A program made the translations under genes and the position numbers. The notes beneath the pieces are model-generated. The model was not told the origin of the DNA. It worked only from the letters and a program-made list of their open reading frames with translations, and searched no databases. From a phage, in the NCBI GenBank assembly GCA_018175275.1, contig GCA_018175275.1_4531.1: DNA of 64,000 nt. One strand, given 5' to 3'. Position 1 is the stretch's first letter. The number at the start of each line of letters is the position of its first letter. Positions 3,365 to 45,454 of the stretch are shown one piece after another.

Positions 3365-3374
3365 AGGAGGTTAT

Positions 3375-3731: not shown

Positions 3732-3742
3732 GGAGAAACTTA

Positions 3743-4650: not shown

Positions 4651-4651
4651 T

Positions 4652-5989: not shown

Positions 5990-5998
5990 GGAGAAATA

Positions 5999-6325
5999 AT
6001 GCAGATTTATACAGATGATCGTAAATATGAGACAATTTTAGATGAAGATACTGGACGAATTACCGTTCTCCGTCACGGTGAAGAGTGGCGTGATGAAACG
6101 GGAGACAATTATATCTTGTCTCTGATTCATCTTATTGAACAAATGCGTGATGATTACGCTGAACTGCATTATGAAAATGAGGCTAATAAAGTAAAATTTG
6201 AAAATGAATTAGAAGAGAAAGAATCCGAAATGGTATATCTAAAAGAAGAGATCTCCCGTTTGGAGGAAGAGATTGATGCTCTTCAAGAAGAGATTTACGA
6301 ACTCAACAACGAACTGAACGCTTAA
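5999..6325 (+). CDS. hypothetical acidic coiled-coil protein
   Basis: 108-aa ORF; AAGGAGA upstream; E-rich heptad-like C-terminus. Confidence 0.5.
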   Translation: MQIYTDDRKYETILDEDTGRITVLRHGEEWRDETGDNYILSLIHLIEQMRDDYAELHYENEANKVKFENELEEKESEMVYLKEEISRLEEEIDALQEEIYELNNELNA

Positions 6326-6334
6326 GGAGGGATT

Positions 6335-6523
6335 ATGAAAAAAGATATCGTTGTTGGTTGGCTGACTTGCCCTTGTGGTAGTAATGACATAACTGTAAAC
6401 ACAGAGGGTGATAAAAATTATTTATTCTACGGGGATAAAATCACTTGCAATACCTGCGGACGTGTTGGTATTATAGAAACCGATGATTGTTGTGCTTTTG
6501 AATCTTGGGATGAAGAAGAATGA
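6335..6523 (+). CDS. small zinc-ribbon protein
   Basis: 62 aa with CPCG...CNTCG; AAGGAGGG upstream. Confidence 0.5.
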   Translation: MKKDIVVGWLTCPCGSNDITVNTEGDKNYLFYGDKITCNTCGRVGIIETDDCCAFESWDEEE

Positions 6524-6741
6524 GTACTGCATTTTATGTTCGTAGCGGAGACGAGGATTTTCTGGCTACTTTTGATGACGGTGATATTGAAGATATGTAT
6601 GACGATATGCTTGACTATGCCAAAGGGCAAGGTTTCACAAGCATTGATTATATGTTGGCAACATCTACAACGTTACTCGACGCAGATTTGGATGAAGTGT
6701 GTAACAGATTGAAAATTTCAGTTTTTAAATGGGAGGACTAA
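6520..6741 (+). CDS. hypothetical acidic protein
   Basis: 73-aa ORF; ATGA overlap. Confidence 0.5.
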   Translation: MSTAFYVRSGDEDFLATFDDGDIEDMYDDMLDYAKGQGFTSIDYMLATSTTLLDADLDEVCNRLKISVFKWED

Positions 6742-7856: not shown

Positions 7857-7865
7857 GGAGGAAAA

Positions 7866-8060
7866 ATGTTTTTAGCCATTCTAATCGTTTTCAGTGCGCT
7901 TTCTTTTTATTGTATGAATGCTTCGGAAAACTTTCCTAAGAATTCAAAGAAAAGAACCGTATGTGTTGCGATTGATTCATGTATGTCTGGAGTTGGGTAT
8001 GCGGTAGTTTCTTGTTTCTTAGCTTATCATTGTGCAAAATACTTGGAGGCATTTTTATGA
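7866..8060 (+). CDS. small membrane protein
   Basis: 64 aa, hydrophobic N-terminus; AAGGAGG upstream. Confidence 0.5.
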   Translation: MFLAILIVFSALSFYCMNASENFPKNSKKRTVCVAIDSCMSGVGYAVVSCFLAYHCAKYLEAFL

Positions 8061-8239
8061 TAATTTTAGCAACAATTCTTATGATGTTGATAGCAATTGC
8101 TATTGTAATACTGGCATCTTTTCCAGCGGATAAATGGTATTTCAATATTCCACGTATGCTTGTTTTCGGTTTTGCAGGAATTTACATGGGTGAGTCTGTA
8201 GTAAATATTAGCAACTTTCTAGAAAGCTATTTTAAATAA
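8057..8239 (+). CDS. small membrane protein
   Basis: Internal ATG of track ORF 7979..8239; GGAGG upstream; ATGA overlap; two hydrophobic segments. Confidence 0.5.
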   Translation: MIILATILMMLIAIAIVILASFPADKWYFNIPRMLVFGFAGIYMGESVVNISNFLESYFK

Positions 8240-8248
8240 GGAGTTATA

Positions 8249-8974
8249 ATGATCGAGAATTTTTTTAAAGATATTAAATTCGATACTGAATTTTTCAAAA
8301 ATGCAGCAAAGCACGTGATTGATTGGAATGCTAAAGCGCGAGGTGGTGAACAACCTGAATTTACTCAAGAGCTATTTATGTCCCAAATCGGGTTCGTTCG
8401 TGAAGAACTTAAAGAGTATGAAACAGCCGCGAAAGTAAACGATCATGTAGAACTCTTGGACGCAGCAGCAGATATTTTTGTAGTATCCAGTTATCTGACT
8501 TACATGTTCTTTGGTGAAGAACATACGATGAATTTCTTGGACTATACTGTAGGTGATGTTTTTACTCCGACTGTGTATACTGACTTTGATGCTTTGGAAC
8601 AAACATTTACAGAGCCAGTTCAAATGGCACTAATGGCTGCTGGTATTATGCGTATGTCTCGTGACACTCTCATTCGTTCAAAATATCCAGAAAAGAAAAT
8701 TATTAAAGAAGTATTGAAAAGTAACGATTCCAAGTATCCAACTAAACAACAGTTGCTGAAAACTTGGAAAACTTCAGATATCGATTCAGCCATTGCACAA
8801 GAATGCACTGCAATTGAAGAACGAAACGCCAATCGTCCAGAAGGAGCATACACGGGTGTTCATGCTGTTTATAATGAAAAACAGAAAGTGTATGTGTTCT
8901 TTGATGATAAAGGTAAGATCATGAAGTGGTCAGGTTTCATTAAACCCAACATTGCAGCTATTATCAAAAAATGA
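8249..8974 (+). CDS. hypothetical protein, possible MazG-like all-alpha NTP pyrophosphohydrolase
   Basis: 241 aa; EELKEYE...ELLDAAADIF pattern reminiscent of MazG/dCTPase EExxE...D motifs; AAGGAG upstream. Confidence 0.4.
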   Translation: MIENFFKDIKFDTEFFKNAAKHVIDWNAKARGGEQPEFTQELFMSQIGFVREELKEYETAAKVNDHVELLDAAADIFVVSSYLTYMFFGEEHTMNFLDYTVGDVFTPTVYTDFDALEQTFTEPVQMALMAAGIMRMSRDTLIRSKYPEKKIIKEVLKSNDSKYPTKQQLLKTWKTSDIDSAIAQECTAIEERNANRPEGAYTGVHAVYNEKQKVYVFFDDKGKIMKWSGFIKPNIAAIIKK

Positions 8975-9612
8975 TAGGTTCAACAAAGGGAGATTTTAGA
9001 ATCTCCCGTCTTTCTGAAACCAAGATTGACAATCAAACTACTTTTGTATGTTTATGCTTGGTATGCCAAAAAGAAAGTTTAAGAACATTGTCCAGTCTGA
9101 AAAGATCAAAGAGTCCGAAATGCATGTATTGTAGTAAGGGCGATGGCCTATCTAATAAGGAACGATATACTTACGAAAGTTATCGTAATATGCTACAAAG
9201 GTGTTATAATGAAAATTGTGAGCACTATGATAGATACGGTGGACGAGGAATTACTGTTTGTGATGATTGGAAGAAATCATTTAACACTTTCTTGAAAGAC
9301 ATGGGTAAGCGACCTAAAAACCATAGTTTAGATCGTGTAAATGTTGATCTTGGTTACAGTAAAGAGAATTGCAGATGGACAACACAAAGTGAACAGATTC
9401 GAAACAGAGGTAAAACAAAAAGCAAGTATTCAAATTTTAGGGGAGTCTCCTATGACAAAGCTAAAAATAAATGGCTGGCTTTTATTTGTTTCGATAAGAA
9501 AACAAAATATTTAGGAAGATATACTACAGAGTTGGAAGCGGCTGAAGCTTACAATCTCGAAGCATTAGAGTTAGGTATGTCTAACTATTTTTTAAATACC
9601 CGTTTTAAATAG
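8971..9612 (+). CDS. HNH homing endonuclease with AP2-like DNA-binding domain
   Basis: SLDRVNVDLGYSKENCRWTT (HNH_3-like) followed by FRGVSYDKAKNKWLAFI...YLGRYTTELEAAEAYN (AP2-like). Confidence 0.65.
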   Translation: MIGSTKGDFRISRLSETKIDNQTTFVCLCLVCQKESLRTLSSLKRSKSPKCMYCSKGDGLSNKERYTYESYRNMLQRCYNENCEHYDRYGGRGITVCDDWKKSFNTFLKDMGKRPKNHSLDRVNVDLGYSKENCRWTTQSEQIRNRGKTKSKYSNFRGVSYDKAKNKWLAFICFDKKTKYLGRYTTELEAAEAYNLEALELGMSNYFLNTRFK

Positions 9613-9620
9613 GAGGAAAC

Positions 9621-10499
9621 ATGTTTGTAAAATCTTTTAAATCCGCTCTGCCTATGGTTGTTGGTGACAATGCTTCTGTAGCATCCCTTAACAGCATTAC
9701 AGATATTCCTCTGGAATTTGTAACAGCAGAAGGCTCCCAGTCACACACTATCGGTCTTGTTCGTTTCGAAGATGACTCTAAATTTGTAAAAGAGTTTTCA
9801 GATCTTGAACTGCTTAATGTAGGTCAATCTGTGAAGAAGGTAGATAAAAAGAAAGTTAAACGTATTCTGAATGAACGTCTAGAAGAAATGCGTCAGGACA
9901 TGGAGAGCGAAGGTAAAGAGTTTTATGTCGATAAAGAAGTAGTCAAAGCAATGAAAGAAGATATTGAATTTGCACTATTGCCTGAAACAGAACCTGAAGA
10001 TTTCTTTAACTATGTTGTCTTGGATAAAACTACGAATCTTCTTTATGTTCTTAATGGAAGTAAAAAGGTTGCAGAAGAGATTACTTCTTTCCTCCGTTCC
10101 GTTCTGGGGACTTTCCCTTCGGTAGGTTTTAGTGTGCACGAAGAAGCTATTGTAAAAGGTTTTGGTGAATTGCTGGAGAATCACGAAGCAGATCGTATTA
10201 CTCTCGGAAATTATATCAAAATGGAGGATAGCGAGGGCGTTGTTGTTTGGAGTAAAGAATCCCTATACGAGTCTAAAGCTGTCGAACTAAAAGAAGATGG
10301 TAAAGATGTTGTTGCAATCGGTCTTGAATATGACGGTGTTGTAGATTTTGTAGTGGATAAAGAGTTTAAACTTTCTAAACTACGTTTTCCGAAATATTTT
10401 GCAGACGAAGAAGGTAGTATTGAAGCTTCAGTCCTTCTGTGCTTCAATGAGATTCGAGGTCTGATGGAAGATTTAACCAAAGCAACAATCCTTAAATAA
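9621..10499 (+). CDS. RdgC-like recombination-associated protein
   Basis: 292 aa; segments YVLNGSKKVAEEITSFLRSVLG and KEFKLSKLRF resemble E. coli RdgC as recalled; AGGAGG upstream. Confidence 0.45.
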   Translation: MFVKSFKSALPMVVGDNASVASLNSITDIPLEFVTAEGSQSHTIGLVRFEDDSKFVKEFSDLELLNVGQSVKKVDKKKVKRILNERLEEMRQDMESEGKEFYVDKEVVKAMKEDIEFALLPETEPEDFFNYVVLDKTTNLLYVLNGSKKVAEEITSFLRSVLGTFPSVGFSVHEEAIVKGFGELLENHEADRITLGNYIKMEDSEGVVVWSKESLYESKAVELKEDGKDVVAIGLEYDGVVDFVVDKEFKLSKLRFPKYFADEEGSIEASVLLCFNEIRGLMEDLTKATILK

Positions 10500-13186: not shown

Positions 13187-13580
13187 TGCTTTTGATAATC
13201 AGGTTGACGGTGATCACTACACAAAAATGGCAATGCAACCTATTGAACTAGCTTATTTGGTTGGTGGCACACCTTGTTTTTGCAAATTGGCAAAATATGC
13301 AACACGTATTAAAGGTGAACGTCAGATTAACCTAGATAAAGCTATTCATTGTATTGAACTAGAAAGAACCCTTATGCAAAATAACACGTATATGGTTCGT
13401 GAAAATTATCCATCTATGACAAATGCAGCTAAACATGATCAAGCTATGCTTCTTATTGATTTCTTCACAAAAGATCCTTTAATCCGAGTGGCACTGAAAC
13501 ACATGTATAACTCTTCTTATGTAGATGCAATCGAAGCTATTAAACAACTTAAGGAACGTATTAGTGGCGAGCAATACTAA
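13179..13580 (+). CDS. hypothetical protein
   Basis: 133-aa ORF; CAGGAGG upstream. Confidence 0.55.
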   Translation: MSNAFDNQVDGDHYTKMAMQPIELAYLVGGTPCFCKLAKYATRIKGERQINLDKAIHCIELERTLMQNNTYMVRENYPSMTNAAKHDQAMLLIDFFTKDPLIRVALKHMYNSSYVDAIEAIKQLKERISGEQY

Positions 13581-13658
13581 ACAATATGGAGCAGGAGAAG
13601 TTTATAAAATATTCAACCGAAAAGGTGATAAACTTTTACTAACTTTGACTATTCCAGA

Positions 13659-13688
13659 AACAATGTGCAAGGCGGGGTTAGACCGCCT
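13659..13688 (+). terminator. rho-independent terminator
   Basis: GGCGG-GGTTAGA-CCGCC followed by TTTTGTTTTTT. Confidence 0.55.
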
Positions 13689-13747
13689 TTTGTTTTTTAA
13701 ACACAATATCCCACCAGGGGAATATACAGCTAAAAAGGTGAGCAATA

Positions 13748-14323
13748 TTGGCAGGTGAACCAAAAATAATGTGGGGTGAAGGAACACCCTGGAAAACACA
13801 AGCGGAATTTTATACTTATCTTAGAGGATGTTTTAGAAAAGCATGGATGAGACACCCTAATAAAATTAAGGTTATCAATGCAAGGCGTTTTAAAGTTGAT
13901 CGCGTAGATAAAGACGGCAATGTGATGATAGACAAGAAAACTGGAAAACCAAAACAAGTTTGGAATTGTGAGTGCGAAATATGTGGACATAGAGGAGGAA
14001 TGAAAGACTTCCAAGTGGATCATATTCACGCAGCAAAACAACTTCAATGTTTTGATGATATTCCTCTTTTTGTTTTCCGTTTAATCTATGTGAAAGAAGA
14101 AGATTTGCGAATGGTTTGTAAATTGTGCAACTCTATTCTTGCTTATGCAGACAAGCAAGGCATATCTTTTGAAGAAGCGAAAGCTGAAAAAGAAGCAATA
14201 GCTTTGTGTAGAGCTAAGAAAGATAAAGCTTGGTTGAAGAAGCGTAAAATAGAACCTGAAAGCACAGTAGCAAAACGCCGTAAACAAATAGTCAAAATCC
14301 TATTGCAGGAAATTGAAAGTTAG
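13748..14323 (+). CDS. HNH endonuclease (free-standing)
   Basis: CECEICGHRGGMKDFQVDHIH HNH motif plus CKLC; TTG start after AAAGGTGAG. Confidence 0.6.
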   Translation: MAGEPKIMWGEGTPWKTQAEFYTYLRGCFRKAWMRHPNKIKVINARRFKVDRVDKDGNVMIDKKTGKPKQVWNCECEICGHRGGMKDFQVDHIHAAKQLQCFDDIPLFVFRLIYVKEEDLRMVCKLCNSILAYADKQGISFEEAKAEKEAIALCRAKKDKAWLKKRKIEPESTVAKRRKQIVKILLQEIES

Positions 14324-14359
14324 TATAAGATAACTATACTGAAAGAGAGAGGAGGTTTT

Positions 14360-14968
14360 ATGCAGATAGTATGTGATTGGGATTTAGTTGTGGCTCCATT
14401 AGATGTTGCTTGGTTAGAATGGTTGAATAAGATTAGTGGACTTGGTGTTAAGATAGACACATTCACAAAAAATGCAGACTATGATCTTACCAACTACTTT
14501 CCTGGTTTCAGGGAGGAGTTCAATATAGATCCTTACGGATTTCTGGATAATCCTCATCTCTATGATACAATGGGTTTTGTTCCAGGTATGCCAGATTTCT
14601 TAAAGTATGTTTCAAGGAAAGGTAGCAATCTTTTGATCGCAAGTGTGACAAAAGGTGGTCACTTAAGTTCTAAACATAAGCATGTTTTAAGAACGTTAGA
14701 TACGATTGATTTTAGCAAAGGATCTGGTAACGGCTTTTTTGCTACGAAAGAAAAATACTTATTGCCTTGTGATATAGCAATAGATGACAGGGCTGATAAC
14801 CTACTATATTTTCCAGATGAAGTGGTTAAAATATATTTTAATACGCCTTATAAAGATAACCATCTAGAAGAACTAAAGAAAAAACCAAATGTTGTGATCA
14901 CAGGTTTAGAAGATCAGTGGCTAACATGTTTGGATGTTTTTAACACTTTGAACAATTTTAAAAACTAA
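14360..14968 (+). CDS. HAD-type 5'(3')-deoxyribonucleotidase-like protein
   Basis: N-terminal CDWDLVV (DxD) and later IAIDDRADN; GAGGAGG upstream. Confidence 0.5.
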   Translation: MQIVCDWDLVVAPLDVAWLEWLNKISGLGVKIDTFTKNADYDLTNYFPGFREEFNIDPYGFLDNPHLYDTMGFVPGMPDFLKYVSRKGSNLLIASVTKGGHLSSKHKHVLRTLDTIDFSKGSGNGFFATKEKYLLPCDIAIDDRADNLLYFPDEVVKIYFNTPYKDNHLEELKKKPNVVITGLEDQWLTCLDVFNTLNNFKN

Positions 14969-14977
14969 GGAGAAAAA

Positions 14978-15976
14978 ATGACAAAACAGATTTCGGCTAG
15001 TATTATTGCGCATTCCATCACTGAAGACGGAAAAGAGATTGTAACTTTTGAACTGGAATATCCACGTATTATTCATTCAGAACTGATGACTCACCGCCTG
15101 TTCAGTCGTAATGCTGCTTCTAGCCGTGCTATACCTGTTAAAACACTGATTGAAATGGTGCGAAATCAACCTGCTCGTCCTTATCGTTTTGGGGCTAACC
15201 AACCTGGTATGCAGGATAAAGGTGTTGATCATGACGCTCTTATTGATGCAGGTTATACTGCTCAAGAGTGGTGGGATCTTGCCGCGCTTAGTGCAGCACG
15301 TTTTGCAGAAGAATTCTCTTTGGCAGGGTACCACAAACAAGTTGCAAACCGTCTTCTGGAACCTTTCCAACGAATTAAAACAGTTCTGACAGCAACAGAA
15401 TATGAAAATTTCTGGTGGCTACGTGATGACAAAGAAGCCGATCCTACTATCGAAGCTTTGGCTAAAGAGATGCACAAAGAGTATGAAGAATCTACACCAG
15501 AAGTGCTGAAACCAGGGCAATGGCACACACCTTATGTAGACCATTTCTATGATAATATTGGCACAGAAGGTGACGATCATTTTGTTTTTGGTGGATACTA
15601 CGTTCAAGATGAATCTGGAGAAGTTGTTGTGCTTACTTTGGAAGAAGCCAAAGCTATTTCAGCTTCGTGTTGTGCACAGGTTAGCTATCGTCGTTTAAAT
15701 GCAACTAAAGATAAAGCTTTAGATATCTATGGTCGTTTGCTGACTGGGCGTAAGGTTCATGCTTCTCCGTTTGAACATCAAGCTACTCCAATGCAAGAAA
15801 CATGCGAACAATACGGAGAGAACTGTTTTGAAGATTTGTTTATCAATGCTCCTTGGGATTTTAACTCTTGGGAACCAGGTATTACCCATGTAGATCGTAA
15901 TGGTAAGTTTTGGTCTGGCAATTTCAAAGGTTGGATTCAACATCGTCAACTTTTAACAAATCATACTAAATGGTGA
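14978..15976 (+). CDS. thyX: flavin-dependent thymidylate synthase
   Basis: ThyX signature spacing HR-x2-S-x-N-x2-S-x-R present as THRLFSRNAASSR; AAGGAGA upstream. Confidence 0.75.
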   Translation: MTKQISASIIAHSITEDGKEIVTFELEYPRIIHSELMTHRLFSRNAASSRAIPVKTLIEMVRNQPARPYRFGANQPGMQDKGVDHDALIDAGYTAQEWWDLAALSAARFAEEFSLAGYHKQVANRLLEPFQRIKTVLTATEYENFWWLRDDKEADPTIEALAKEMHKEYEESTPEVLKPGQWHTPYVDHFYDNIGTEGDDHFVFGGYYVQDESGEVVVLTLEEAKAISASCCAQVSYRRLNATKDKALDIYGRLLTGRKVHASPFEHQATPMQETCEQYGENCFEDLFINAPWDFNSWEPGITHVDRNGKFWSGNFKGWIQHRQLLTNHTKW

Positions 15977-15991
15977 TCTGTTTAAATAGTT

Positions 15992-16019
15992 ATTGACTTT
16001 AGTATTAGTTTTAGTATAA
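15992..16019 (+). promoter_or_regulatory. sigma70-type early promoter
   Basis: TTGACT-16 bp-TATAAT. Confidence 0.55.
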
Positions 16020-16033
16020 TATAGCACAATACT

Positions 16034-16053
16034 GGGAGGAGGTGAGTCCTCCC
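16034..16053 (+). promoter_or_regulatory. 5'-UTR stem-loop
   Basis: GGGAGGA-GGTGAG-TCCTCCC, about 15 nt downstream of the -10. Confidence 0.4.
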
Positions 16054-16074
16054 ATTCAAAACGAAGGAGAAAAT

Positions 16075-16485
16075 ATGTCATTAGTAAATACTACAACTTG
16101 GGCTACCGTAAGCATGTCTACTGTAATGTCTACCCCTATCTGGAAACTAGAATCAAATAAACACAATGGCAATATCCCACACGAGAAACAAAATGCTGTT
16201 ATTAGAGCGTCGCTTGTAATGCTGGGTATGGCTGAAGATTCACACTATTCTGTTGAGCGTAATGTGAATATCCGAAGCAATAACGATAAGCGAGTAGTGT
16301 TTGCAAATACAACGCTTTTCACTTTCCCTGTTTCACCTAATTGTGGTTTTAAACGAATCTATCAAGAAAATGATATTTTTCATTTTGGTGATGAAGAATT
16401 TACAGGTTGGGGTGCGTCACATATTAAGATGGATGATTTCGGTAACTCTTATGATCCTGCGAAAGCAGATGATACTAATCAATGA
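16075..16485 (+). CDS. hypothetical protein
   Basis: Internal ATG of track ORF 16042..16485 with AAGGAGA upstream. Confidence 0.55.
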   Translation: MSLVNTTTWATVSMSTVMSTPIWKLESNKHNGNIPHEKQNAVIRASLVMLGMAEDSHYSVERNVNIRSNNDKRVVFANTTLFTFPVSPNCGFKRIYQENDIFHFGDEEFTGWGASHIKMDDFGNSYDPAKADDTNQ

Positions 16486-16736
16486 GAGGGACAATGACTG
16501 ATAATAAATATGAAGGCTGTGAAATCGAAGTCTATTTTGATGAAACTATTGGTTGTAATGTAACTGTAATTCTAGACACTTCAAAACGTTTATCTCCTAA
16601 AAGACAAGAAGCAGATCGTCGAGCAAAAGCAAAAGGGTTTGATGACATAACTCATTTTGAAGGTTTTCTATATGCTAATGGACTTTTTAATGAAATGAAG
16701 TTCGGTTATGATGTAGATGTTTTGAATATGCATTAA
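16482..16736 (+). CDS. hypothetical protein
   Basis: 84-aa ORF; ATGA overlap; alternative ATG 12 nt downstream. Confidence 0.5.
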   Translation: MRGTMTDNKYEGCEIEVYFDETIGCNVTVILDTSKRLSPKRQEADRRAKAKGFDDITHFEGFLYANGLFNEMKFGYDVDVLNMH

Positions 16737-16752: not shown

Positions 16753-18996
16753 TTGATTCGTTTTGTAACTAAATCTAATGGTAAGACAGAGGAGTTTAAC
16801 CCAGAAAAACTTCGCAAGTGGTCTGAATTTGCAGCAGGTAAACTAAACTGGTCTGAAATTGAATTAGAAGCTGTGAAGCGGTGTTATGACGGTGTGTCTA
16901 CACGTGATCTGCATAAAGCAATGATTGCAGCGTGTATTGACAAGAAAACACAAGCTTACAGTGATATGGCAGGAAGACTTCTTCTGGGTATGATTTACAA
17001 ACAGGCTCATGGGGGATACCACAGTATCCCTTCACTGAATACCTTTTATCATGATATGGTAGAACGTGGTCATTGGGCTAAAATGGATTATACTGATGAA
17101 GAGATCAAAGAAATCGGTAAGATTGTAAAGCATAATAAAAATCTAACTTATGGTTATTCTGTTTTACGTCAAATGGTGGATAAATATCTTATTCGAGATG
17201 CAGTAAACGATGTGGTGCATGAGTCTCCACAGTTCCTTTTCATTGGTATCGCAATGAAGGTTATGGAGATCCAACCAAAAGAACGCCGTATAGAAGATAT
17301 TAAAAAACTTTATACTTATGTCAGCGATCTTAAGATTAATCTGCCATCGCCATATCTGACAACTCTACGAACTCCAATCAAAGGAAGTGCGTCTTGTTGT
17401 TTATTCCGTGCAGACGATACGGCAGAGTCTTTAGCCATTGCTAATTACTTAGCTCATGAGTATACGTTGAATAACGCAGGTATTGGTGTTAATCTTCAAA
17501 CTCGTGCCACAGGTCAAGGTGTTAAGAATAATCGTATTATTCACGGTGGTCTTCTTCCGTATCTGAAATGGATGGAAGATAGTGTTGGAGCTTCAAAGCA
17601 AGCAAGCCGTGGAGGTAGTGCTACAGTTACCTTTACCATACTTGAACCAGACTTCGACGATCTGATTCGACTGAAGAATCCAACAACACCTATAGATAAA
17701 CGAGTGGATAAACTAGATTATTCTATTGTTGTTAACCGTTCGTTCTTGCGTCGAGCAGCAAAAAACGAAGACTGGATGTTAGTTAGTTGTGATGATGCTC
17801 CTGAACTTTATGAAGCTTTATATAAAAGTGAAGAAGAGTTTGATGCAGTTTATGACAAAGTAAGTCGTCGTCGCATTAAGAAAAAATTTGTTAAGGCTCG
17901 TGATCTTCTGACAGAGATTATTGTTCAACGTGCAGAAACAGGACGTATTTACATGTTCTTTGCTGACAACGTTAACAACCATACACCTTTCTTGGATACG
18001 GTGTATCAATCAAACCTGTGTCAAGAGATCTTCTTACCAACTAAAGCTTTTCACAGTATGCCGGATCTCTTTACTGGTGAAAATACAGAAGATCAAGAAT
18101 TGGCTTTATGTTTCTTATCTTCTATTGTTGCTGGTCGTGTATTACCTGAAGAATATGAGGATGTTGCATACTACACTGTATTGACAATTGACAACGTTAT
18201 TGAAACAATGGATTATCCATTTAAACATAACGAAATAACTGCTAAAGCACGTAGATCTATTGGTGTAGGCATTACAAACTTAGCACATTACTTGGCAAGT
18301 AATTTTGTAAATTATTCAGATGATTATGCTAAAAAATTAATGCATGAACTTGCAGAACGTCATTACTTTTGGTTGGCAAAAGCCTCTTTGCGTCTGGCTA
18401 AGGAAAAAGGTAATGCAGAATGGATCGATAAGACCAAATGGCCTCAAGGTTGGCTACCGATTGACACCTATGCTAAAGCAGTAGATAGTGTCGGTAACTT
18501 TGATCTTAAAATGGACTGGGAAGGTTTACGTGCTGAAATCATTGAACAAGGTGGTATCCGTAATAGTGTCTTGGCTGCTATTGCACCTAATGAGTCCAGC
18601 AGTTTGGTAAGCAATACTACTAACTCTCTGTACCCTGTTCGTGATACTATTATGTATAAACAAAGTCAGAAAGGTAGTGTATTATTTATTGTTCCAGACT
18701 ACGAAAAACTGAAAATGTTCTACCAATCCGCCTGGGATACTCCGGCTAAAGACCTTGCAGAAATGTATGGTATCTTTACCAAGTTTACAGACCAAGGAAT
18801 TTCTTGTGATTCTTGGCTAGATTATTCTAAATTGGTAGGTGGACGTTTATCAGTGAAAGCCGAGATGCAGTTTATTCTGAATTTTGCTAGATTGGGTGGC
18901 AAGTCGTTGTATTATCTTAACAGTAGAACAAAATCAGCAGATTCTTTAGCACAAGAAGATTCTGAAGACGAAGGGTGTAGTGCCTGTAAAATGTAG
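16753..18996 (+). CDS. nrdA: ribonucleoside-diphosphate reductase large subunit
   Basis: 747 aa; N-terminal ATP-cone-like region; length and order relative to nrdB; TTG start after GGGAGGAG. Confidence 0.9.
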   Translation: MIRFVTKSNGKTEEFNPEKLRKWSEFAAGKLNWSEIELEAVKRCYDGVSTRDLHKAMIAACIDKKTQAYSDMAGRLLLGMIYKQAHGGYHSIPSLNTFYHDMVERGHWAKMDYTDEEIKEIGKIVKHNKNLTYGYSVLRQMVDKYLIRDAVNDVVHESPQFLFIGIAMKVMEIQPKERRIEDIKKLYTYVSDLKINLPSPYLTTLRTPIKGSASCCLFRADDTAESLAIANYLAHEYTLNNAGIGVNLQTRATGQGVKNNRIIHGGLLPYLKWMEDSVGASKQASRGGSATVTFTILEPDFDDLIRLKNPTTPIDKRVDKLDYSIVVNRSFLRRAAKNEDWMLVSCDDAPELYEALYKSEEEFDAVYDKVSRRRIKKKFVKARDLLTEIIVQRAETGRIYMFFADNVNNHTPFLDTVYQSNLCQEIFLPTKAFHSMPDLFTGENTEDQELALCFLSSIVAGRVLPEEYEDVAYYTVLTIDNVIETMDYPFKHNEITAKARRSIGVGITNLAHYLASNFVNYSDDYAKKLMHELAERHYFWLAKASLRLAKEKGNAEWIDKTKWPQGWLPIDTYAKAVDSVGNFDLKMDWEGLRAEIIEQGGIRNSVLAAIAPNESSSLVSNTTNSLYPVRDTIMYKQSQKGSVLFIVPDYEKLKMFYQSAWDTPAKDLAEMYGIFTKFTDQGISCDSWLDYSKLVGGRLSVKAEMQFILNFARLGGKSLYYLNSRTKSADSLAQEDSEDEGCSACKM

Positions 18997-19107
18997 TAGG
19001 AGAACAGATGAAGAAGGGTAAACGTAAAGTTACCGTTCTCACAGAGAGGGGAGAAATCCCCTTGATTGTGGATGTTGAACGTAGATTGTGGGAAGGTGGT
19101 GTTATCA

Positions 19108-19665
19108 ATGGAAAAAAGGGTTAATACATTCATAGATCCTTCCTATGCAGCTTGGAAAGGCATGTTTAATCGCGCATATCGTATGGAAAACATTAGACCA
19201 GGTTATAAAGATGTTACCGTGTGTGATGCTTGGTTCACCTTTTCAAACTTTGATAACTGGTATCAAGAACATAACGTGGAAGGCTTTGTTTTAGATAAAG
19301 ATCTTGTTCTTGAAGGAAATACTGTTTACTGTCCTGAATATTGTAGGTTTGTTCCTCCTTACATAAATACACTCTTAAGTTATGCTAAGAGGTATGAAAG
19401 AAAATACTTACTAGGAGCACATGTTAGGAAAGATGGTAAGATTTATGCCAAAGCTTCTGGGAGCAAAGGTAAGCATTTAGGTTACTTCGCTACAGAGGAA
19501 GAGGCACACTTCGCTTGGCTAAAGGATAAAGCTAAGTCAATCAGGGAAACAGCGGATCGTTACAAAGAGGAAGAACATTTTTATCAAGAGGTGTACAACA
19601 CTCTTGTAAACAAGGCGGATTTCTATTGGCATCTGGCTGAAACAAAAACAGTGTTTCGAGGCTAA
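19108..19665 (+). CDS. HNH-family homing endonuclease with AP2-like domain (MobE-like position)
   Basis: Paralogous to 8971..9612 (YxxW..MxxR N-terminus; GAHVRKDGKIYAKASGSKGKHLGYFATEEEAHFAW AP2-like); between nrdA and nrdB. Confidence 0.6.
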   Translation: MEKRVNTFIDPSYAAWKGMFNRAYRMENIRPGYKDVTVCDAWFTFSNFDNWYQEHNVEGFVLDKDLVLEGNTVYCPEYCRFVPPYINTLLSYAKRYERKYLLGAHVRKDGKIYAKASGSKGKHLGYFATEEEAHFAWLKDKAKSIRETADRYKEEEHFYQEVYNTLVNKADFYWHLAETKTVFRG

Positions 19666-19669
19666 ATAT

Positions 19670-19693
19670 AAAGGGGCTTCGGCCCCCTTTTTA
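19670..19693 (+). terminator. rho-independent terminator
   Basis: AGGGGC-TTCG-GCCCCC followed by TTTTT. Confidence 0.65.
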
Positions 19694-19709: not shown

Positions 19710-20798
19710 ATGGCAGCAATTAATTTACACAATGAAGTTTACAAAACAGGAAAATATCCAGTATTTTTAGGGGAACAATTAGGGATCTTTGATTCTGTTA
19801 ACGTGACTTATCCAGAAATGCACAAACTCTACAAACTTCAAAAAGCACAAGATTGGGATGAAAACGAAGTTAACTTGGATCAGACACGTAAAGATTTCGT
19901 AGCTTGTTCTAAAAACAACTATGATGTTATGATTAAAAACTTATCGTTCCAATGGGAAAATGATTCTCTTGCAAAATCAATCATCACTTTGTTCTCTCCA
20001 TTCTTGAGTAACAATGAAGCCTGTGCTATGATGATGAAGCAGAGTGAAATGGAAGTTCTCCATGCGTTAACGTATTCTGAAATAATCCGTCAATGTACTC
20101 CAGATCCAATCGAAGTCATCAATCAGATTATGATTAATGATAAAATTTTCAATCGTATGGGTATCATTGCTGATATCATGGGTCAGTTGGAAGAAGCTGG
20201 TCATAAGTATGCTCTAGGATTGATTGAAGCTAACGATGAACTTCGACTGCTGATTCTTAAAGGGATGGTAGCCCTGATTGGGTTAGAAGGTATTCAGTTT
20301 ATATCTTCCTTCTCTGCTACTTTTGCTATGGCAGAACAACAACTGTTTGTTGGAGCTTGTAAACTGATCCAGAAAATTATGCTAGATGAAATCTTGCATG
20401 TTAAGATGGATTATGCTGTAATTGATGCATTGATGCATGACCCAATTTGGCGTAAAATTTACGAAGACAATATCGAAGAGTTGACTTTGATTCTCGACAC
20501 TGTTGTTGAACAAGAGGAACAGTGGTGTGACTACCTGTTTAGTGAAGGGCGTTTTATTGTAGGTCTTAACGCCGAATTGTCTAAACAATGGGTTTATTTC
20601 AATGCTGCTCCTATTTATCGTCGATTGAAAATGAAAGCCAAGTTTAAAGCACCTAAACATAGTCCTTTAGCTTGGATGGAAAAATGGTTGAATCCTGATT
20701 TGATTCAGTCAGCAGCCCAAGAGATTCAGTTAACTAACTACAAATTAAATTCAGCTAACAAAGATCTCTCTGATGATGAGGAGCTTGACTTCGAATGA
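19710..20798 (+). CDS. nrdB: ribonucleoside-diphosphate reductase small subunit
   Basis: 362 aa with paired E..H di-iron motifs (EMEVLHAL, DEILHVKMD); GAGGAG upstream. Confidence 0.9.
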   Translation: MAAINLHNEVYKTGKYPVFLGEQLGIFDSVNVTYPEMHKLYKLQKAQDWDENEVNLDQTRKDFVACSKNNYDVMIKNLSFQWENDSLAKSIITLFSPFLSNNEACAMMMKQSEMEVLHALTYSEIIRQCTPDPIEVINQIMINDKIFNRMGIIADIMGQLEEAGHKYALGLIEANDELRLLILKGMVALIGLEGIQFISSFSATFAMAEQQLFVGACKLIQKIMLDEILHVKMDYAVIDALMHDPIWRKIYEDNIEELTLILDTVVEQEEQWCDYLFSEGRFIVGLNAELSKQWVYFNAAPIYRRLKMKAKFKAPKHSPLAWMEKWLNPDLIQSAAQEIQLTNYKLNSANKDLSDDEELDFE

Positions 20799-21626: not shown

Positions 21627-21635
21627 GGAGAACTG

Positions 21636-22628
21636 ATGCGCTATCTGGTAACAGGTGGTCTTGGTTTTATTGGGAGTGCCGTGGTGCGCTCTCTTTGTCA
21701 AGATCCTAATAACGAAGTTTTTGTCGTTGATAAGATGAGCTATGCAGCAGATATTGAGAATGTAGGCGATATCACTCACGTTAAACTAAGCATGACAGAT
21801 TTGGCAAACGAAGCCCAAGTAAAAAGTTTAGTAGTAGAGTGCAATCCCGATTTCATCATTCACTTAGCGGCAGAGAGTCATGTGGATAATTCTATCAAGA
21901 ATCCACGAGTTTTCATCGACTCCAATATTATTGGTACATACAATTTATTGGAAGCTGCAAGGCTCCTCCCAAAGAATAAACTGAAGATGTTCGTACACGT
22001 CTCCACAGACGAAGTGTACGGCGATATGGCAGACTCTGGCGTTCCCTTTACCGAAGAGACAGCTTATGCCCCTTCAAGCCCATACAGTGCGTCTAAGGCA
22101 GCATCTGACCATCTTGTGAAAGCTTGGCACCGTACCTACGATTTGCCTGTTGTGATAACCAACTGCTCCAATAACTTTGGACCCTATCAACATCCAGAAA
22201 AGCTGATCCCAAAAATCATCACAAGTATCTTGACGAATAAAGAGATTCCGGTGTATGGTAAAGGCGATCAGGTGCGAGACTGGCTTTTTGTTGAGGATCA
22301 TGCGCGAGCTATTCTTCAAGTGGCAACAGGTGGAGAACCAGGTAAAACGTATAATGTGGGAACACGTAATCCCAAAACCAATATGGAGATCATCTATATG
22401 GTTTGTGACTACATGGATGCTGTACATCCAGAAGCAGGAACCTACCCTTCTTCCAACTTGATAACTTTTGTTGAAGATCGTAAAGGGCATGACTTGCGTT
22501 ATGAAATCAATCCTTCTAAGATAGAGTCTGAACTGGGTTGGAGTGCAAACTCTACATTTGAACAAGATCTCTACTCAACGATTGAATGGTACTTAAACAA
22601 CCCTCAATGGTGGAGTGGGAAGATTTAA
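21636..22628 (+). CDS. rfbB: dTDP-glucose 4,6-dehydratase
   Basis: N-terminal [14 protein letters not shown] Rossmann motif, 330 aa; GGTAAGGAG upstream. Confidence 0.85.
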
Positions 22629-22636
22629 GGAGGGCT

Positions 22637-23515
22637 ATGAAAGGTATTATTTTGGCGGGAGGAAGTGGAACCCGCCTTCATCCGGTAACACGCAGTGTGA
22701 GCAAGCAATTGCTCCCTGTGTATGACAAACCCATGATCTACTACCCTTTATCGGTATTGATGTTGGCTGACATTAAGGATATCTTAATCATCACCACACC
22801 AGGCGATCAGGAAGACTTTGAGTATCTTCTCGGAGATGGGTCTATGTTTGGGATAAAACTCACTTACGCAATCCAATCCGAGCCGCGAGGTCTTGCGGAC
22901 GCTTTCATCATCGGTAAAGATTTTATCGGAGAAGACTCTGTTGCTCTTATTTTAGGTGACAACCTATTCTTCGGACAAAGCTTTGGTAAACTACTGATTA
23001 ACGCCAGTGAGATGGTAGATGTTTGTGGCGGAGCTTGTATCTTCGGGTATTTGGTGAAAGATCCTGAACGATTCGGTGTGGTTGAATTTGGGAGTAATCG
23101 TCAAGCTATTTCTATTGAAGAGAAACCTGAAAATCCTAAATCAGATTATGCTGTCACAGGTTTGTATTTCTATGATAACTCTGTTGTTCAACGTGCATTA
23201 GAAGTAACCCCTTCCGCGCGTGGAGAACTGGAGATCACAGATATCAATCGCAGCTACCTCGAAGACAGGAAGTTACAAGTGGAAGTTCTCGGACGAGGAT
23301 TTACTTGGCTTGACACAGGAACACACGCCAGTCTGATGGAAGCTGGTCAATTCGTGCAGACTATTGAGAACCGTCAAGGGTTGAAGATTGCGTGCCTGGA
23401 AGAAATTGCTTTCAAAAAAGGGTGGATTTCTTTAGAGACTTTGGTATATCATGGAAACTCACTGAAGAAAACAGAGTACGGGCAATACCTACTCAAATTA
23501 GCGGAGAGAAAATGA
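22637..23515 (+). CDS. rfbA: glucose-1-phosphate thymidylyltransferase
   Basis: [16 protein letters not shown] signature; internal ATG of track ORF 22586..23515 with AAGGAGGG upstream. Confidence 0.85.
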
Positions 23516-24078
23516 AAGTAGAAAAAACAAAAATTGAAGGTGCGGTAATTATCAAACCAGACGTTTATAAAGATGATCGTGGTTTCTTTTTAGAAACATA
23601 TAATGAACAAAAATACGAAGATATCATCGGTAGACAAACTTTCGTTCAAGATAACATGTCTAAATCAAACTTCGGTGTTTTGCGAGGAATGCACTTTCAA
23701 ACAAATAATCCGCAAGGTAAGCTTGTTCGTTGTGTAAGTGGGGAAGTATTGGATTTCGCTGTAGACCTACGTAAAGATAGTCCTACTTACGGTGCTTGGG
23801 ACGGTGTTGTTCTTCGTGCACGACACCATACACAGTTCTGGCTTCCACCTGGTTTGGCGCATGGTTTTATAGTGTTGAGTATGGATGCTATCTTCGAATA
23901 CAAATGCACAACTCCATACGACCCTTCCAGCGAACAAAGTTTACGTTGGGATGATCCTGATATAGGGATTGATTGGGGCTTCGATATGATTTTTGACGAA
24001 GATTTTAAACCTATCTTATCAACAAAAGATGCAATGGCTAAGTCTTTTCAACAGCTACGTAGCGAGGGTGTATGCTAA
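23512..24078 (+). CDS. rfbC: dTDP-4-dehydrorhamnose 3,5-epimerase
   Basis: 188 aa cupin-like; YKDDRGFF and RGMHFQ motifs; ATGA overlap with rfbA stop. Confidence 0.8.
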
Positions 24079-24914
24079 CATATCTGGTATTGGGTGGTAA
24101 TGGACAACTGGGACAAGCTTTACGTAAAGTGGCTCCTTCAAATGTGTCTTTAATTTATCCTAAAGAACGTGTAGATATTACAAATTTTGAAGCTGTGCGA
24201 AACGCTATTGTTGAAGATTATGTAGATGGTGTTATTAATTGCGCTGCTTATACGGCTGTAGATAAAGCAGAACAGGATTTTGCTACTGCTTTGGCTGTTA
24301 ATGCCTATGGCCCTGCAAATATTGCGGCAGTGTGCAGCAAACTTAAAATTGATTTTGTGCATATTTCTACAGACTATATTTTTAATTATTCTCATCCTAT
24401 TTTTGAAGACACTACACCTAACCCGATAAACAATTATGGGTATACGAAAGAACTCGGTGAAAAAATGGTGCGAGGAGTTAACCCAAACGCATATATTATT
24501 CGAACAGCGTCTGTATATAGTGAATTTGGAAATAACTTTCTAAAAACCATGTTGTCTCGCTATAATGATGGACAACGTGATTTTATTATTGTTGCTGATC
24601 AGTTCTCTTGTCCAACATATGCCCCAGATTTAGCAGAAGCTATTTTTGAAGTATTAAAAACAGGTTGGTCAAGATCTGTAAAGACTTACCATTTTGCAGG
24701 AAGCCATCTTATTTCTTGGGCGGAGTTTGCGGAAAAGATCTTGACACAGATGCCAGAACCTGTTAAGATATCGGCGGTATCAGCTTCAACCTATAATGCT
24801 CCAGCAGCACGTCCGGTGAAGTCACAATTAGTAACCAGTCACTATCTTACAAAATCAGATTTAAATAAAGGTATTGAACGGTCTTTAGCAGTATTACTTA
24901 ATAAGGAGAGGTAA
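24072..24914 (+). CDS. rfbD: dTDP-4-dehydrorhamnose reductase
   Basis: N-terminal LVLGGNGQLGQAL; 280 aa; start overlaps rfbC stop. Confidence 0.75.
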   Translation: MLTYLVLGGNGQLGQALRKVAPSNVSLIYPKERVDITNFEAVRNAIVEDYVDGVINCAAYTAVDKAEQDFATALAVNAYGPANIAAVCSKLKIDFVHISTDYIFNYSHPIFEDTTPNPINNYGYTKELGEKMVRGVNPNAYIIRTASVYSEFGNNFLKTMLSRYNDGQRDFIIVADQFSCPTYAPDLAEAIFEVLKTGWSRSVKTYHFAGSHLISWAEFAEKILTQMPEPVKISAVSASTYNAPAARPVKSQLVTSHYLTKSDLNKGIERSLAVLLNKER

Positions 24915-25174
24915 TGGAATTTGTAATTTTTGGTAAACCTAACTGTCAATTTTGCGAAATGTCAAAACAACTATTAACCATGCGCAATAAACAGTTTGAA
25001 TATTTAAGTCTTGACCAAGACTACGATTTAGAATCAATGACTAAAACAGTTGTTGATCTTACCGGAGTTCCTCCACGCACATTTCCACAAATTCTGTCTG
25101 AAGTGAACGGGGAGGTAACATACGTAGGCGGTTTTACCGAACTGCGTGATCTCATGGCTCAAATTGCGGAGTAA
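24914..25174 (+). CDS. glutaredoxin-like protein (NrdC/NrdH type)
   Basis: 86 aa, CQFC redox motif near N-terminus; AGGAGAGG upstream. Confidence 0.65.
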   Translation: MEFVIFGKPNCQFCEMSKQLLTMRNKQFEYLSLDQDYDLESMTKTVVDLTGVPPRTFPQILSEVNGEVTYVGGFTELRDLMAQIAE

Positions 25175-25336: not shown

Positions 25337-25837
25337 ATGGCTAAAGTAGTAGATGAGTTTGATATGCTACGAGTCGATGAAGGACTGAAGCTTACTGTTT
25401 ATCAAGACCATCTTGGTTATTGGACAGTCGGCATAGGACACCTTCTGACTAAAATAAAAGATAAAGCAAAGGCTATTCAAATCTTAGATAATCTCCTTGG
25501 TCGTAAGACCAATGGAGTTATCACAGAAAAAGAAGCCCGTCAAATCTTTGCTGACGATGTTGCAAAAGTGAAGAGAGACATAAAAAACAGTGCTATCTTA
25601 TCACCAATCTATGATAAGGTGAGTGATACTCGTAAATTGGGAATAATCAACATGGTTTTCCAGTTGGGGTTAAAAGGTGCTGAAGGGTTTAAAAATAGCT
25701 TGACTTTAATCAGCAATGCATATTATACTCAAGCAGGTAAAAACATGCGTAAAAGCCGATGGTATAGCCAGACGCCAAACCGTGCTGAACGAGTAATTAA
25801 AGTTCTGACTTCTGGAACTTTAGATGCTTACAACTAA
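25337..25837 (+). CDS. e: T4-type lysozyme (endolysin)
   Basis: MLRVDEGLKLTVYQDHLGYWTVGIGHLL and RWYSQTPNRAERVI closely match T4 lysozyme incl. catalytic E/D/T positions. Confidence 0.85.
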   Translation: MAKVVDEFDMLRVDEGLKLTVYQDHLGYWTVGIGHLLTKIKDKAKAIQILDNLLGRKTNGVITEKEARQIFADDVAKVKRDIKNSAILSPIYDKVSDTRKLGIINMVFQLGLKGAEGFKNSLTLISNAYYTQAGKNMRKSRWYSQTPNRAERVIKVLTSGTLDAYN

Positions 25838-36646: not shown

Positions 36647-37138
36647 ATGTTTCAAGTAGAAATTCATGTGCACAACAGTTGTTCAAATTGCGAAACTTGT
36701 GGTTACAATAGTTCAACCATGATCACTATTAGCGGAGACTTAGGAGATGCCAAGTTTGGCGAAGTTGCAAGCTGCTTCAGCGGAGAGGATGCAGATTGGC
36801 ATGATATTGCACACTGGTTGGTGAGCAAACTAAAAGAAAAAGAGAAACCATTTCCTGCTCTGCTTGATCGTTCTCTTGTGGAAGATGCAGGTAAAGCATA
36901 TGCAGACTATGCATATGCAGACGGGAAATATTTGGAAGATGATAAGGCTAACCATTTGCTTTATGTTTACTATGAAGCTGAATCTGCCTACGATAATTAT
37001 TACAGCATGTCCAACATTCTACGTTTGTTTGCGGAGTTTGATATTTACTTTGAAGTGAGTTATTCTCAAGACGAAGTGCACGATTTGGATGACGAAGATT
37101 ATGATGATTATGAGGAGGAAGAATGCCAAGACGATTAA
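36647..37138 (+). CDS. hypothetical Zn-finger protein with acidic tail
   Basis: CSNCETCG near N-terminus; D/E-rich C-terminus; GGGAGGAAA upstream; preceded by hairpin/T-run at 36607-36635. Confidence 0.5.
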   Translation: MFQVEIHVHNSCSNCETCGYNSSTMITISGDLGDAKFGEVASCFSGEDADWHDIAHWLVSKLKEKEKPFPALLDRSLVEDAGKAYADYAYADGKYLEDDKANHLLYVYYEAESAYDNYYSMSNILRLFAEFDIYFEVSYSQDEVHDLDDEDYDDYEEEECQDD

Positions 37139-37923
37139 TAGTGATCAGCGGCGCTGGCTTAAGCGCCGATAGCGGTGTTCGTACTTTCCGCACTGACACA
37201 GAAAGTGGCAAAGCTTTGTGGGATGAATACGACCTTTCTGAAGTGTGCGACATTTTCAACTTCCGTGCTGGATACCAACAAGAACAGTGTGTTCCTGGGG
37301 CTGTTGGCGGATTAGATGCAGAGGGATACAACCTCTACCGTAAAACTCATGACTTCTACAATAAACGTCGCGTAGAGATGGATAGTGTAACTCCTAACGC
37401 TGCGCATTACCAGATCGCGGAATGGTTTCAAGAGTACGGCTGTGATCGTGTTATCAACATCACGACAAACGTAGATGATCTTCTGGAACAAGCGGGTGTT
37501 GTTCATGAAGATGTTCTACATGTTCACGGCTTCCTGCCTGAAGTGATCGTAGACAATAGAATCATCAAAGATGTTGGCTATGCTGCTATCGATGTGGATG
37601 ATTACAAGTATGTGAAGCCCAATGTAGTGTTCTTTGGGGAGACTGCCCCATTGTATAACGATATGTACCACATCTTAGACGGCTTGACGGCTCAAGATAT
37701 GGTGATTGTAGTGGGTTGCTCTAATCAAGTTATCAATTTTAACTGGGAGCTTTTTCCTGCTCTTAATAGCGGGACAAAAATGGTTGTAGTTAACCCTGGA
37801 GTTAATTACGAAGAAACACTTCTCTATGAAGATCGTGGAGTTTTTGTTTACCGAGAAAAAGCTGCAACAGCCTTCAGCAATGAAGGTTTCATTAAAATGG
37901 TCGAAGACCACTTAAACAAATAA
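37123..37923 (+). CDS. SIR2-family protein lacking the zinc-ribbon module
   Basis: GAGLSADSGVRTFR, TTNVDDLLEQAG, VHG, VVFFGE, VVGCS in sirtuin order; GAGGAGGAAGA upstream. Confidence 0.65.
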   Translation: MPRRLIVISGAGLSADSGVRTFRTDTESGKALWDEYDLSEVCDIFNFRAGYQQEQCVPGAVGGLDAEGYNLYRKTHDFYNKRRVEMDSVTPNAAHYQIAEWFQEYGCDRVINITTNVDDLLEQAGVVHEDVLHVHGFLPEVIVDNRIIKDVGYAAIDVDDYKYVKPNVVFFGETAPLYNDMYHILDGLTAQDMVIVVGCSNQVINFNWELFPALNSGTKMVVVNPGVNYEETLLYEDRGVFVYREKAATAFSNEGFIKMVEDHLNK

Positions 37924-45425: not shown

Positions 45426-45454
45426 AACCACTCCTAAACCATTGCTGTATTCTC

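Follow-up and report, generated by a model that had tools for sequence, protein, structure and literature searches.

A dTDP-L-rhamnose operon kept by phAPEC8-like phages and its possible link to the phages' own glycosyltransferases

Why does a lytic coliphage keep a deoxysugar pathway under strong selection? This is the question that matters about the rmlB-rmlA-rmlC-rmlD operon (rfbB-rfbA-rfbC-rfbD in the initial annotation), which was analysed here in a stretch of 64,000 nucleotides from contig GCA_018175275.1_4531.1 of the phage assembly GCA_018175275.1. This whole stretch is referred to as the window and is assigned by its sequence to a phAPEC8-like phage (Phapecoctavirus, Stephanstirmvirinae). 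The operon is already known: annotations of it and comments on it in this phage family go back to 2012, and it is named in more than 45 GenBank records. Olsen et al. 2020 (PMC7552041) found its placement amid the DNA-metabolism genes "peculiar" and proposed glycosylation of hydroxymethylated nucleotides, and phi92-like phages were described to have "a putative dTDP glycosylation machinery" by Maffei et al. 2021 (PMC8594841). A study from 2023 reported phage ESCO37 without rmlA and rmlB. No paper giving the phage rml operon a function was found in a literature search. Added here are a conserved rmlCD core with an rmlBA cassette that can be exactly deleted, a cluster of glycosyltransferase (GT) genes matching rmlD in its distribution, and GT modules located beside the terminase genes of prophages. 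The best lead to the use of the sugar is provided by phage GT genes elsewhere in the genome and not by DNA modification.

The family of each rml product was assigned by its score against the curated NCBIfam equivalog cut-off, and 4/4 products exceed this cut-off, with Pfam in agreement (Table 1). RmlB aligns over its full length with Salmonella RmlB 1G1A (E 4e-111) and has kept the TDE and YxxxK motifs in the form of STDEVYG and YSASK, RmlA aligns in full with 4HO0 (E 6e-126) and has kept the GGSGTRL motif, and in the full-length alignment of RmlC with 1DZR (E 4e-56) the catalytic His (RGMHFQ), Lys (GKLVRC) and Tyr (EYKCT) are aligned. RmlD was matched over its full length to the B. anthracis enzyme 3SC6 (E 2e-44), with STDY, YxxxK and the N-terminal GxxGxxG kept, and more weakly to Salmonella 1KBZ (E 3e-29), whereas its score with the enterobacterial-type model NF007440 was 120 bits and far under the cut-off of 308. 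Judged from these comparisons, RmlD is not of the enterobacterial type, and its closest solved relatives are Bacillus and Clostridium enzymes. A profile search of all four proteins had been named beforehand as a check in the initial annotation; it confirmed the Rml families and led to no reassignment to other short-chain dehydrogenase/reductase (SDR) or nucleotidyltransferase families. The claim of a complete rmlB-rmlA-rmlC-rmlD pathway in the nucleotide-metabolism region of a phage is thus borne out by equivalog scores, full-length alignments and motifs. The signature motifs quoted at that time are present, and the flanks of the operon, nrdB on one side and the glutaredoxin and lysozyme genes on the other, are as described.

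The starts of rmlA and rmlC were corrected to 22637 and 23512, because the family matches begin late in the longest open reading frames (ORFs) and the public records agree with the later starts. The longest ORF of rmlA starts at 22586, with the TIGR01207 match beginning at residue 19, and that of rmlC starts at 23392, with the TIGR01221 match beginning at residue 42; the GenBank starts are 22637 and 23512. The junctions consist of a gap of 8 nt between rmlB and rmlA and overlaps of 4 nt (rmlA/rmlC), 7 nt (rmlC/rmlD) and 1 nt (rmlD/grx), and therefore the earlier wording 'translationally coupled' is essentially right. The ratio of nonsynonymous to synonymous substitution rates (dN/dS) of the rml genes lies at 0.01-0.11 against phAPEC8 and at 0.03-0.18 against phiWec186. 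By this measure all four genes are under strong purifying selection, with intact ORFs, and are not decaying.

Table 1. Features of the rml region in the window and glycosyltransferase genes of the relative NC_052654.1 (aa, amino acids)
Feature	Position	Strand	Product or description	Family match
terminator-like hairpin	19673-19686	+	GGGGCTTCGGCCCC then T-run, between HNH-like ORF and nrdB	
Shine-Dalgarno of rmlB	21627..21631	+	GGAGA; left end of natural rmlBA deletion	
rmlB	21636..22628	+	dTDP-glucose 4,6-dehydratase, 330 aa	TIGR01181 431 bits, cut-off 365
rmlA	22637..23515	+	glucose-1-phosphate thymidylyltransferase, 292 aa	TIGR01207 468 bits, cut-off 361
Shine-Dalgarno of rmlC	23503..23507	+	GGAGA; right end of natural rmlBA deletion	
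rmlC	23512..24078	+	dTDP-4-dehydrorhamnose 3,5-epimerase, 188 aa	TIGR01221 225 bits, cut-off 156
rmlD	24072..24914	+	dTDP-4-dehydrorhamnose reductase, 280 aa	TIGR01214 238 bits, cut-off 224
grx	24914-25174	+	glutaredoxin	
lysozyme gene	25337-25837		T4-type lysozyme	
gp027 (NC_052654.1)			small GT, 187 aa	phrog_14179
gp028 (NC_052654.1)			GT-A with FDDD motif, 227 aa	
gp029, gp030 (NC_052654.1)			paralogous GT-B, 315 and 314 aa	phrog_7162

The operon region is 96-99% identical to 42-47 complete phAPEC8-like genomes, most of which already name all four genes, and the operon DNA is 97% identical to that of phAPEC8 (JX561091 / NC_020079), where it is annotated. The same layout of nrdA, HNH, nrdB, small ORFs, rmlB-A-C-D, grx, lysozyme and phoH was found in phi92 (NC_023693, Justusliebigvirus), with Rml proteins of 55-71% identity. 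As this layout is common to phi92 and the phAPEC8-like phages, the operon is ancestral to the subfamily. A host-derived chimeric assembly had been named in the initial annotation as an outcome that would speak against its interpretation, and a decaying acquisition without function would be a related explanation. The base composition could be read in this direction, since the GC content at third codon positions (GC3) of rmlB (0.41) and rmlA (0.42) is above the phage mean, whereas rmlC (0.30) and rmlD (0.24) are not (mean of the ORFs on the + strand 0.30, standard deviation 0.05). However, the locus with this layout is present in dozens of independent isolates and also in phi92-like phages, and the best DNA match among 5,426 complete E. 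coli genomes has an identity of ~64% and covers 45% of the operon. The gene order is B-D-A-C in the host and B-A-C-D in the phage, and the nearest bacterial RmlA proteins (Pseudoalteromonas, Vibrio, Alcanivorax) are ~69-71% identical and no closer than the copies of phi92-group phages. The ORFs are all intact, with a dN/dS of 0.01-0.18 over both comparisons. An artefact or a mere passenger is refuted by the recurrence among isolates, the low host identity, the gene order and the intact ORFs under selection, and has practically no probability left.

The two halves of the operon have, as far as their identities, GC3 values and phyletic patterns indicate, different histories, with rmlBA as a separately exchanged cassette and rmlCD as the conserved core. 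About 18 phapecoctaviruses, including nepoznato, anhysbys, ESCO37, ZCKP1, dw-ec and 536P1, keep rmlC-rmlD without rmlB-rmlA. The deletion spans 1876 bp between the two GGAGA sites listed in Table 1. Its junction, which reads gtctggtaaGGAGAgaaaATGaaagt in the rmlCD-only phage nepoznato, fuses both GGAGA copies exactly, and therefore rmlC retains an intact ribosome-binding site. In comparison with phiWec186, RmlB and RmlA are 94-97% identical, whereas RmlC and RmlD show an identity of 64-66% (64-76% for RmlC, RmlD and Grx together), from which an exchange of rmlBA between lineages as a cassette can be deduced. A donor of this cassette was sought, and no bacterial RmlA above about 71% identity was found. 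By tblastn, RmlD was found in 107 and RmlA in 88 Escherichia-phage records, and in Klebsiella relatives rmlCD is kept and rmlA is mostly absent.

Enterobacteria all make dTDP-4-keto-6-deoxy-glucose for the enterobacterial common antigen (ECA) via RffH and RffG, and in agreement with this, a match to rmlB-rmlA exists in 5,426/5,426 E. coli genomes. Since the host supplies this intermediate, rmlCD alone suffices for dTDP-L-rhamnose in any enterobacterial host, and this accounts for its status as the conserved core. The rmlBA part would then be an accessory cassette that raises the flux and frees the phage from dependence on the host.

A Pfam scan detected no GT among the 37 ORFs of at least 130 amino acids in the window, and to this extent the earlier statement that no glycosyltransferase is recognisable is correct. 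It does not extend beyond the window, as four GT genes (gp027-gp030, Table 1) stand in a row at 13401-16545 of NC_052654.1, a relative with 99% identity, ~73-75 kb from the rml operon and just upstream of the primase/helicase and DNA polymerase genes. There are strong grounds to expect gp027-gp030-like GT genes also in the window's own genome. The GT-B protein occurs in 107 Escherichia-phage records, which equals the RmlD count and includes the rmlCD-only phages, and it was also found in Klebsiella relatives with rmlCD.

Searches of the GTs against the PDB by sequence gave no usable matches. The structural model of GT-B, with a predicted local distance difference test (pLDDT) score of 93.6, has a GT4-type fold, and its matches include BshA, MshA and PglA as well as the protein O-glycosyltransferases SdgB, Gtf3 and GtfC; T4 AGT and BGT are absent from its top 50 fold matches. 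For the GT-A model of gp028 (pLDDT 87), the best PDB match is A197 of the archaeal virus STIV, followed by protein-glycosylating and teichoic-acid GT-A enzymes, including TarP, TarS and RmlT bound to TDP-rhamnose. Its fold matches in a viral library are generic, with megavirus GTs among the best and TET-associated GTs only at ranks 23-24. The GT genes of NC_052654.1 are directly preceded by a cluster of the tellurite-resistance type (TerC, TelA, vWA-TerF-like, TerD; 4476-8772), and the same arrangement was seen in a divergent metagenomic relative (contig L019, 180-6749).

GT-B homologues annotated as bacterial proved to be in prophages. Six unrelated temperate-phage contexts were identified in which lysis genes, sometimes a gp027-like gene, a gp028-like gene and GT-B are followed by the terminase genes TerS/TerL, portal and capsid. 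The genes of the GT module run in the same direction as the terminase genes and are tightly packed with them, as in a late operon, and their products have 38-44% pairwise identity to the phage proteins. Such a location in temperate phages speaks for a function in lytic growth and against one in lysogenic conversion. An RmlB-like SDR (TIGR01181 180 bits, below cut-off) is enclosed by homologues of gp027, gp028 and gp029 in a prophage of Enterobacter, and by gene content a 6-deoxyhexose enzyme is here linked with the GT module a second time and independently. No base-hydroxylating genes were found near the GT module in the prophages carrying it.

Other GT-B homologues, with 42-45% identity, adjoin genes for inverse-autotransporter (invasin-like) adhesins in Burkholderia and Trinickia. 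The loci of Burkholderia dolosa (3025-8440) and Trinickia symbiotica (3742-10026) also encode an uncharacterised protein of 555-571 amino acids. Adhesin-specific protein glycosyltransferases are an established paradigm, and the location of GT-B next to adhesin genes hints that this GT family might glycosylate proteins.

For the use of the sugar, the following route is proposed. Glucose-1-phosphate and dTTP would be converted to dTDP-L-rhamnose by RmlA, RmlB, RmlC and RmlD in turn, with RmlC and RmlD acting on dTDP-4-keto-6-deoxy-D-glucose, and the product would be consumed by the phage's own GT cluster, which may build a rhamnose-containing glycan on a non-DNA acceptor in lytic growth. That the rml operon and the GT cluster are functionally linked is considered likely, though far from certain. 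The explanation as a whole, a phage-maintained dTDP-L-rhamnose pathway feeding the phage's own GTs for a non-DNA acceptor, is given about an even chance. The likeliest acceptor would be a protein, with virion proteins as leading candidates, and this assignment is tentative. Somewhat more doubtful still is the specific form in which self-made dTDP-L-rhamnose and the three-family GT module (gp027-like, gp028-like GT-A and GT-B) glycosylate the phage's own virion or another protein.

Several observations weigh against this proposal. The GT cluster was read in the relative NC_052654.1 and not in the window's own genome, the co-occurrence of rmlCD and the GT genes lies mostly inside one clade and is confounded by shared ancestry, and in the lytic phages both the rml operon and the GT cluster are found among early or replication genes and not among structural genes. 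The fold matches are generic for GT4 and GT-A enzymes and equally include small-molecule, lipid-linked and teichoic-acid GTs, so that the acceptor is not identified by them. Ser/Thr-rich tails on the capsid, decoration, tube and sheath proteins were not found in a sequence scan, which does not decide the matter. RmlD is only 14 bits above the TIGR01214 cut-off, and thus the product may be dTDP-6-deoxy-L-talose (the C4 epimer) instead of dTDP-L-rhamnose. Furthermore, gp028 and gp029 have no significant pairwise similarity to the GTs gp108-110 of mycobacteriophage Che8 (BLASTP E 0.008 to above 1). A link to these Che8 virion GTs had looked promising when tblastn with gp028 matched Cluster F phages, and it was rejected, as the direct comparison with gp108-110 was not significant.

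Ranked second behind a protein or virion acceptor, and on the whole unlikely, is a remodelling of the host envelope. Phage GTs would use dTDP-L-rhamnose to build or cap a glycan linked to a lipid (undecaprenyl pyrophosphate, Und-PP), which a host flippase and ligase would export onto the lipopolysaccharide (LPS) core or the ECA pathway. In this way the phage's own receptors, ECA and outer-core glucose, would be masked, superinfection blocked and progeny kept off cell debris. Such a route would agree with the canonical destination of dTDP-rhamnose in enterobacteria, which is O-antigen and LPS, with a GT-B fold like that of GT4 enzymes acting on Und-PP-linked acceptors such as PglA, and with a GT-A model like the teichoic-acid GTs TarP/TarS and the rhamnosyltransferase RmlT. 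It would also agree with the receptors of the phi92-like group, which are ECA and the LPS outer-core glucose (Maffei et al. 2021, PMC8594841). However, the annotation of NC_052654.1 contains no membrane GT, flippase, polymerase or Gtr-type gene, and the GT module of temperate phages is located in the late operon and not at the integrase-proximal, lysogeny-expressed site typical of seroconversion genes. In addition, a single lytic cycle leaves little time to replace existing surface glycans. A different connection to the envelope, rated as very improbable, would be a metabolic diversion without any phage acceptor. RmlC and RmlD would drain dTDP-4-keto-6-deoxy-glucose from the synthesis of dTDP-Fuc4NAc, and accumulated dTDP-rhamnose would feedback-inhibit RffH/RmlA, which would shut down the synthesis of new ECA. 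RmlA is known to be inhibited allosterically by dTDP-L-rhamnose, and it is rmlCD alone that is universally conserved. The primary receptor of the clade is ECA (PMC8594841). Against a diversion, most isolates also have rmlBA, which adds to the intermediate instead of draining it, the four GT genes conserved alongside imply a consumer for the product, and surface ECA that is already present would outlast one lytic cycle.

Among the uses suggested in the initial annotation, which also comprised glycosylation of virion proteins and remodelling of host surface polysaccharide, DNA hypermodification was named first and turned out to be the least supported, and it is also the least probable of the explanations weighed in these two paragraphs. 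As already put forward in print by Olsen et al. 2020 (PMC7552041), rhamnose would be transferred onto a modified base of the phage DNA, comparable to the glucosyl-hydroxymethylcytosine of T4. The location of the operon inside the nucleotide-metabolism module, between nrdB and grx, would be in line with this. In the cluster outside the window, gp028 shows a similarity, weak and below threshold, to the TET-associated GT family PF20691 (19.2 bits, under the cut-off of 27.5, E 0.0013, 36 residues) and to phrog_842 (beta-glucosyl-hydroxymethylcytosine alpha-glucosyltransferase, E 4e-6 over 42 residues), and the viral fold ranks 23-24 mentioned above are taken by TAGT-domain proteins. However, no ThyA-type hydroxymethylase, TET/JBP or TGT/DpdA protein was found among the 37 window ORFs or in the annotation of NC_052654.1, and a base-modification scan of the window yielded only ThyX-like, NT5C-like and MazG-like proteins. 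The phi92-like phages PaulScherrer and JohannJBalmer of the BASEL collection carry the same rml and GT genes and belong to a group that is "exceptionally susceptible" to restriction-modification (RM) systems (Maffei et al. 2021, PMC8594841). The absence of T4 AGT and BGT from the top fold matches of GT-B points in the same direction. Hypermodification is judged to be very unlikely because no hydroxymethylase, TET or TGT genes were found in these ORFs and this annotation, because none for base hydroxylation were found near the prophage modules, and because the relatives are sensitive to restriction.

In the window, nrdB (19710-20798) is followed by four small ORFs without known function, and then come the rml operon and the genes for glutaredoxin and T4-type lysozyme. 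No site comparable to the hairpin at 19673-19686 was found between nrdB and the lysozyme gene, and the rml genes therefore probably share a transcript with nrdB and grx. In the promoter and terminator scan, promoter-like sites were no commoner than in shuffled sequence, and the hairpin upstream of nrdB was the single clean terminator-like one. Between nrdA (16753-18996) and nrdB, an HNH/AP2-like ORF (19066-19665, +) is located, which is 92% identical to phi92 gp074 ('HNH endonuclease'), whereas the flanking NrdB has 84% and the Rml proteins have 55-71% identity. This contrast is compatible with a recently spread homing endonuclease. Its position is labelled 'NrdA-like' in RefSeq NC_052654.1, and a second ORF with an AP2 domain is found at 8971-9612 of the window.

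Further upstream on the + strand, an NT5C-type deoxynucleotidase (14360-14968) is followed by a divergent ThyX-like protein of 332 amino acids, which extends to 15976. It is the sole thymidylate-synthase-like gene seen (PF02511 35 bits; phrog_85 thymidylate synthase), and its chemistry is predicted. A metallophosphatase (4099-4650), a T4 Rnl1-like RNA ligase (4652-5584, PF09511) and an AAA_33 P-loop kinase-like protein (5585-5989) occupy positions 4099-5989 of the + strand, and this trio resembles a cassette for RNA (tRNA) repair. A Sir2-family protein (37123-37923, +) and a serine recombinase (resolvase; 44754-45431, -) were also found in this myovirus, which is regarded as strictly lytic. 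ARAGORN detected 0 tRNA genes in the window, whereas the closest RefSeq record, NC_052654.1, has a tRNA cluster just upstream, and upstream of nrdA the coordinates of the two are shifted by ~672 bp. From the absent tRNA cluster and this offset it follows that the window and NC_052654.1 represent different isolates, which are not collinear in this region.

If dTDP-L-rhamnose is indeed passed on to the phage's own GTs and from there to virions or other proteins, it would constitute the first case described, for phages of Gram-negative hosts, of virion or protein glycosylation with a nucleotide-sugar supply of its own. Phapecoctaviruses and phi92-like phages are frequent candidates for the treatment of infections with pathogenic E. 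coli, and glycosylated virions would matter for their pharmacokinetics and for their recognition by the immune system. The GT module found next to the terminase genes of prophages in Pseudomonas, Enterobacter and Serratia would then represent a widespread, unrecognised phage glycosylation system. If the glycan were placed on the host envelope instead, a new mechanism of receptor masking in the lytic phase would result. The natural rmlCD-only and four-gene isolates, together with the co-conserved GT cluster, make the question of the acceptor tractable by a comparison of existing isolates.

Compared with the operons of phAPEC8 and phi92, the window represents one more isolate of the four-gene form, with nothing essential different. 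The bacterial rfb clusters of E. coli and Salmonella have the same four equivalog-level enzyme families with common catalytic residues. However, the phage operon lies in a nucleotide-metabolism transcription unit without an adjacent O-antigen GT, wzx or wzy, and it differs by the order B-A-C-D, by a DNA identity of ~64% at best and by its non-enterobacterial RmlD. Gtr-type O-antigen conversion is set apart by the lack of GtrA/GtrB/GtrC genes in the annotation of NC_052654.1 and by the nature of the phage as a lytic myovirus. The AGT/BGT system of T4 is similar in that sugar genes stand among the nucleotide-metabolism genes of a large lytic myovirus and in that one GT-A weakly matches DNA-GT families, but here a hydroxymethylase was not detected, a dTDP-sugar would take the place of UDP-glucose as donor, and the relatives are restriction-sensitive.

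Virion glycosylation has been described for the mycobacteriophages Che8, Corndog and Myrna (Freeman et al. 2023, as cited in PMC11256854 and PMC12363180). The likeness consists in soluble GTs that are encoded by the phage and act in lytic growth, and gp028 has distant tblastn matches of 26-29% over ~130 amino acids to right-arm GT genes of Cluster F phages. Phage-encoded GTs are present here as well (four, in NC_052654.1), without significant similarity to gp108-110, and no Ser/Thr-rich tails were seen. In contrast to the phages with the rml operon, these mycobacteriophages encode no nucleotide-sugar pathway. For the E. coli phages, virion glycosylation is a candidate. Giant viruses such as chlorovirus PBCV-1 and mimivirus encode nucleotide-sugar enzymes, including those for L-rhamnose synthesis, together with GTs for their capsid or fibril glycans. 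They use a eukaryote-type UDP-L-rhamnose route instead of the bacterial dTDP route, and their hosts and virion architecture are unrelated. What they share with the phage is that the virus provides both the activated 6-deoxyhexose and the transferases, and gp028 counts megavirus GTs among its best fold matches in the viral library.

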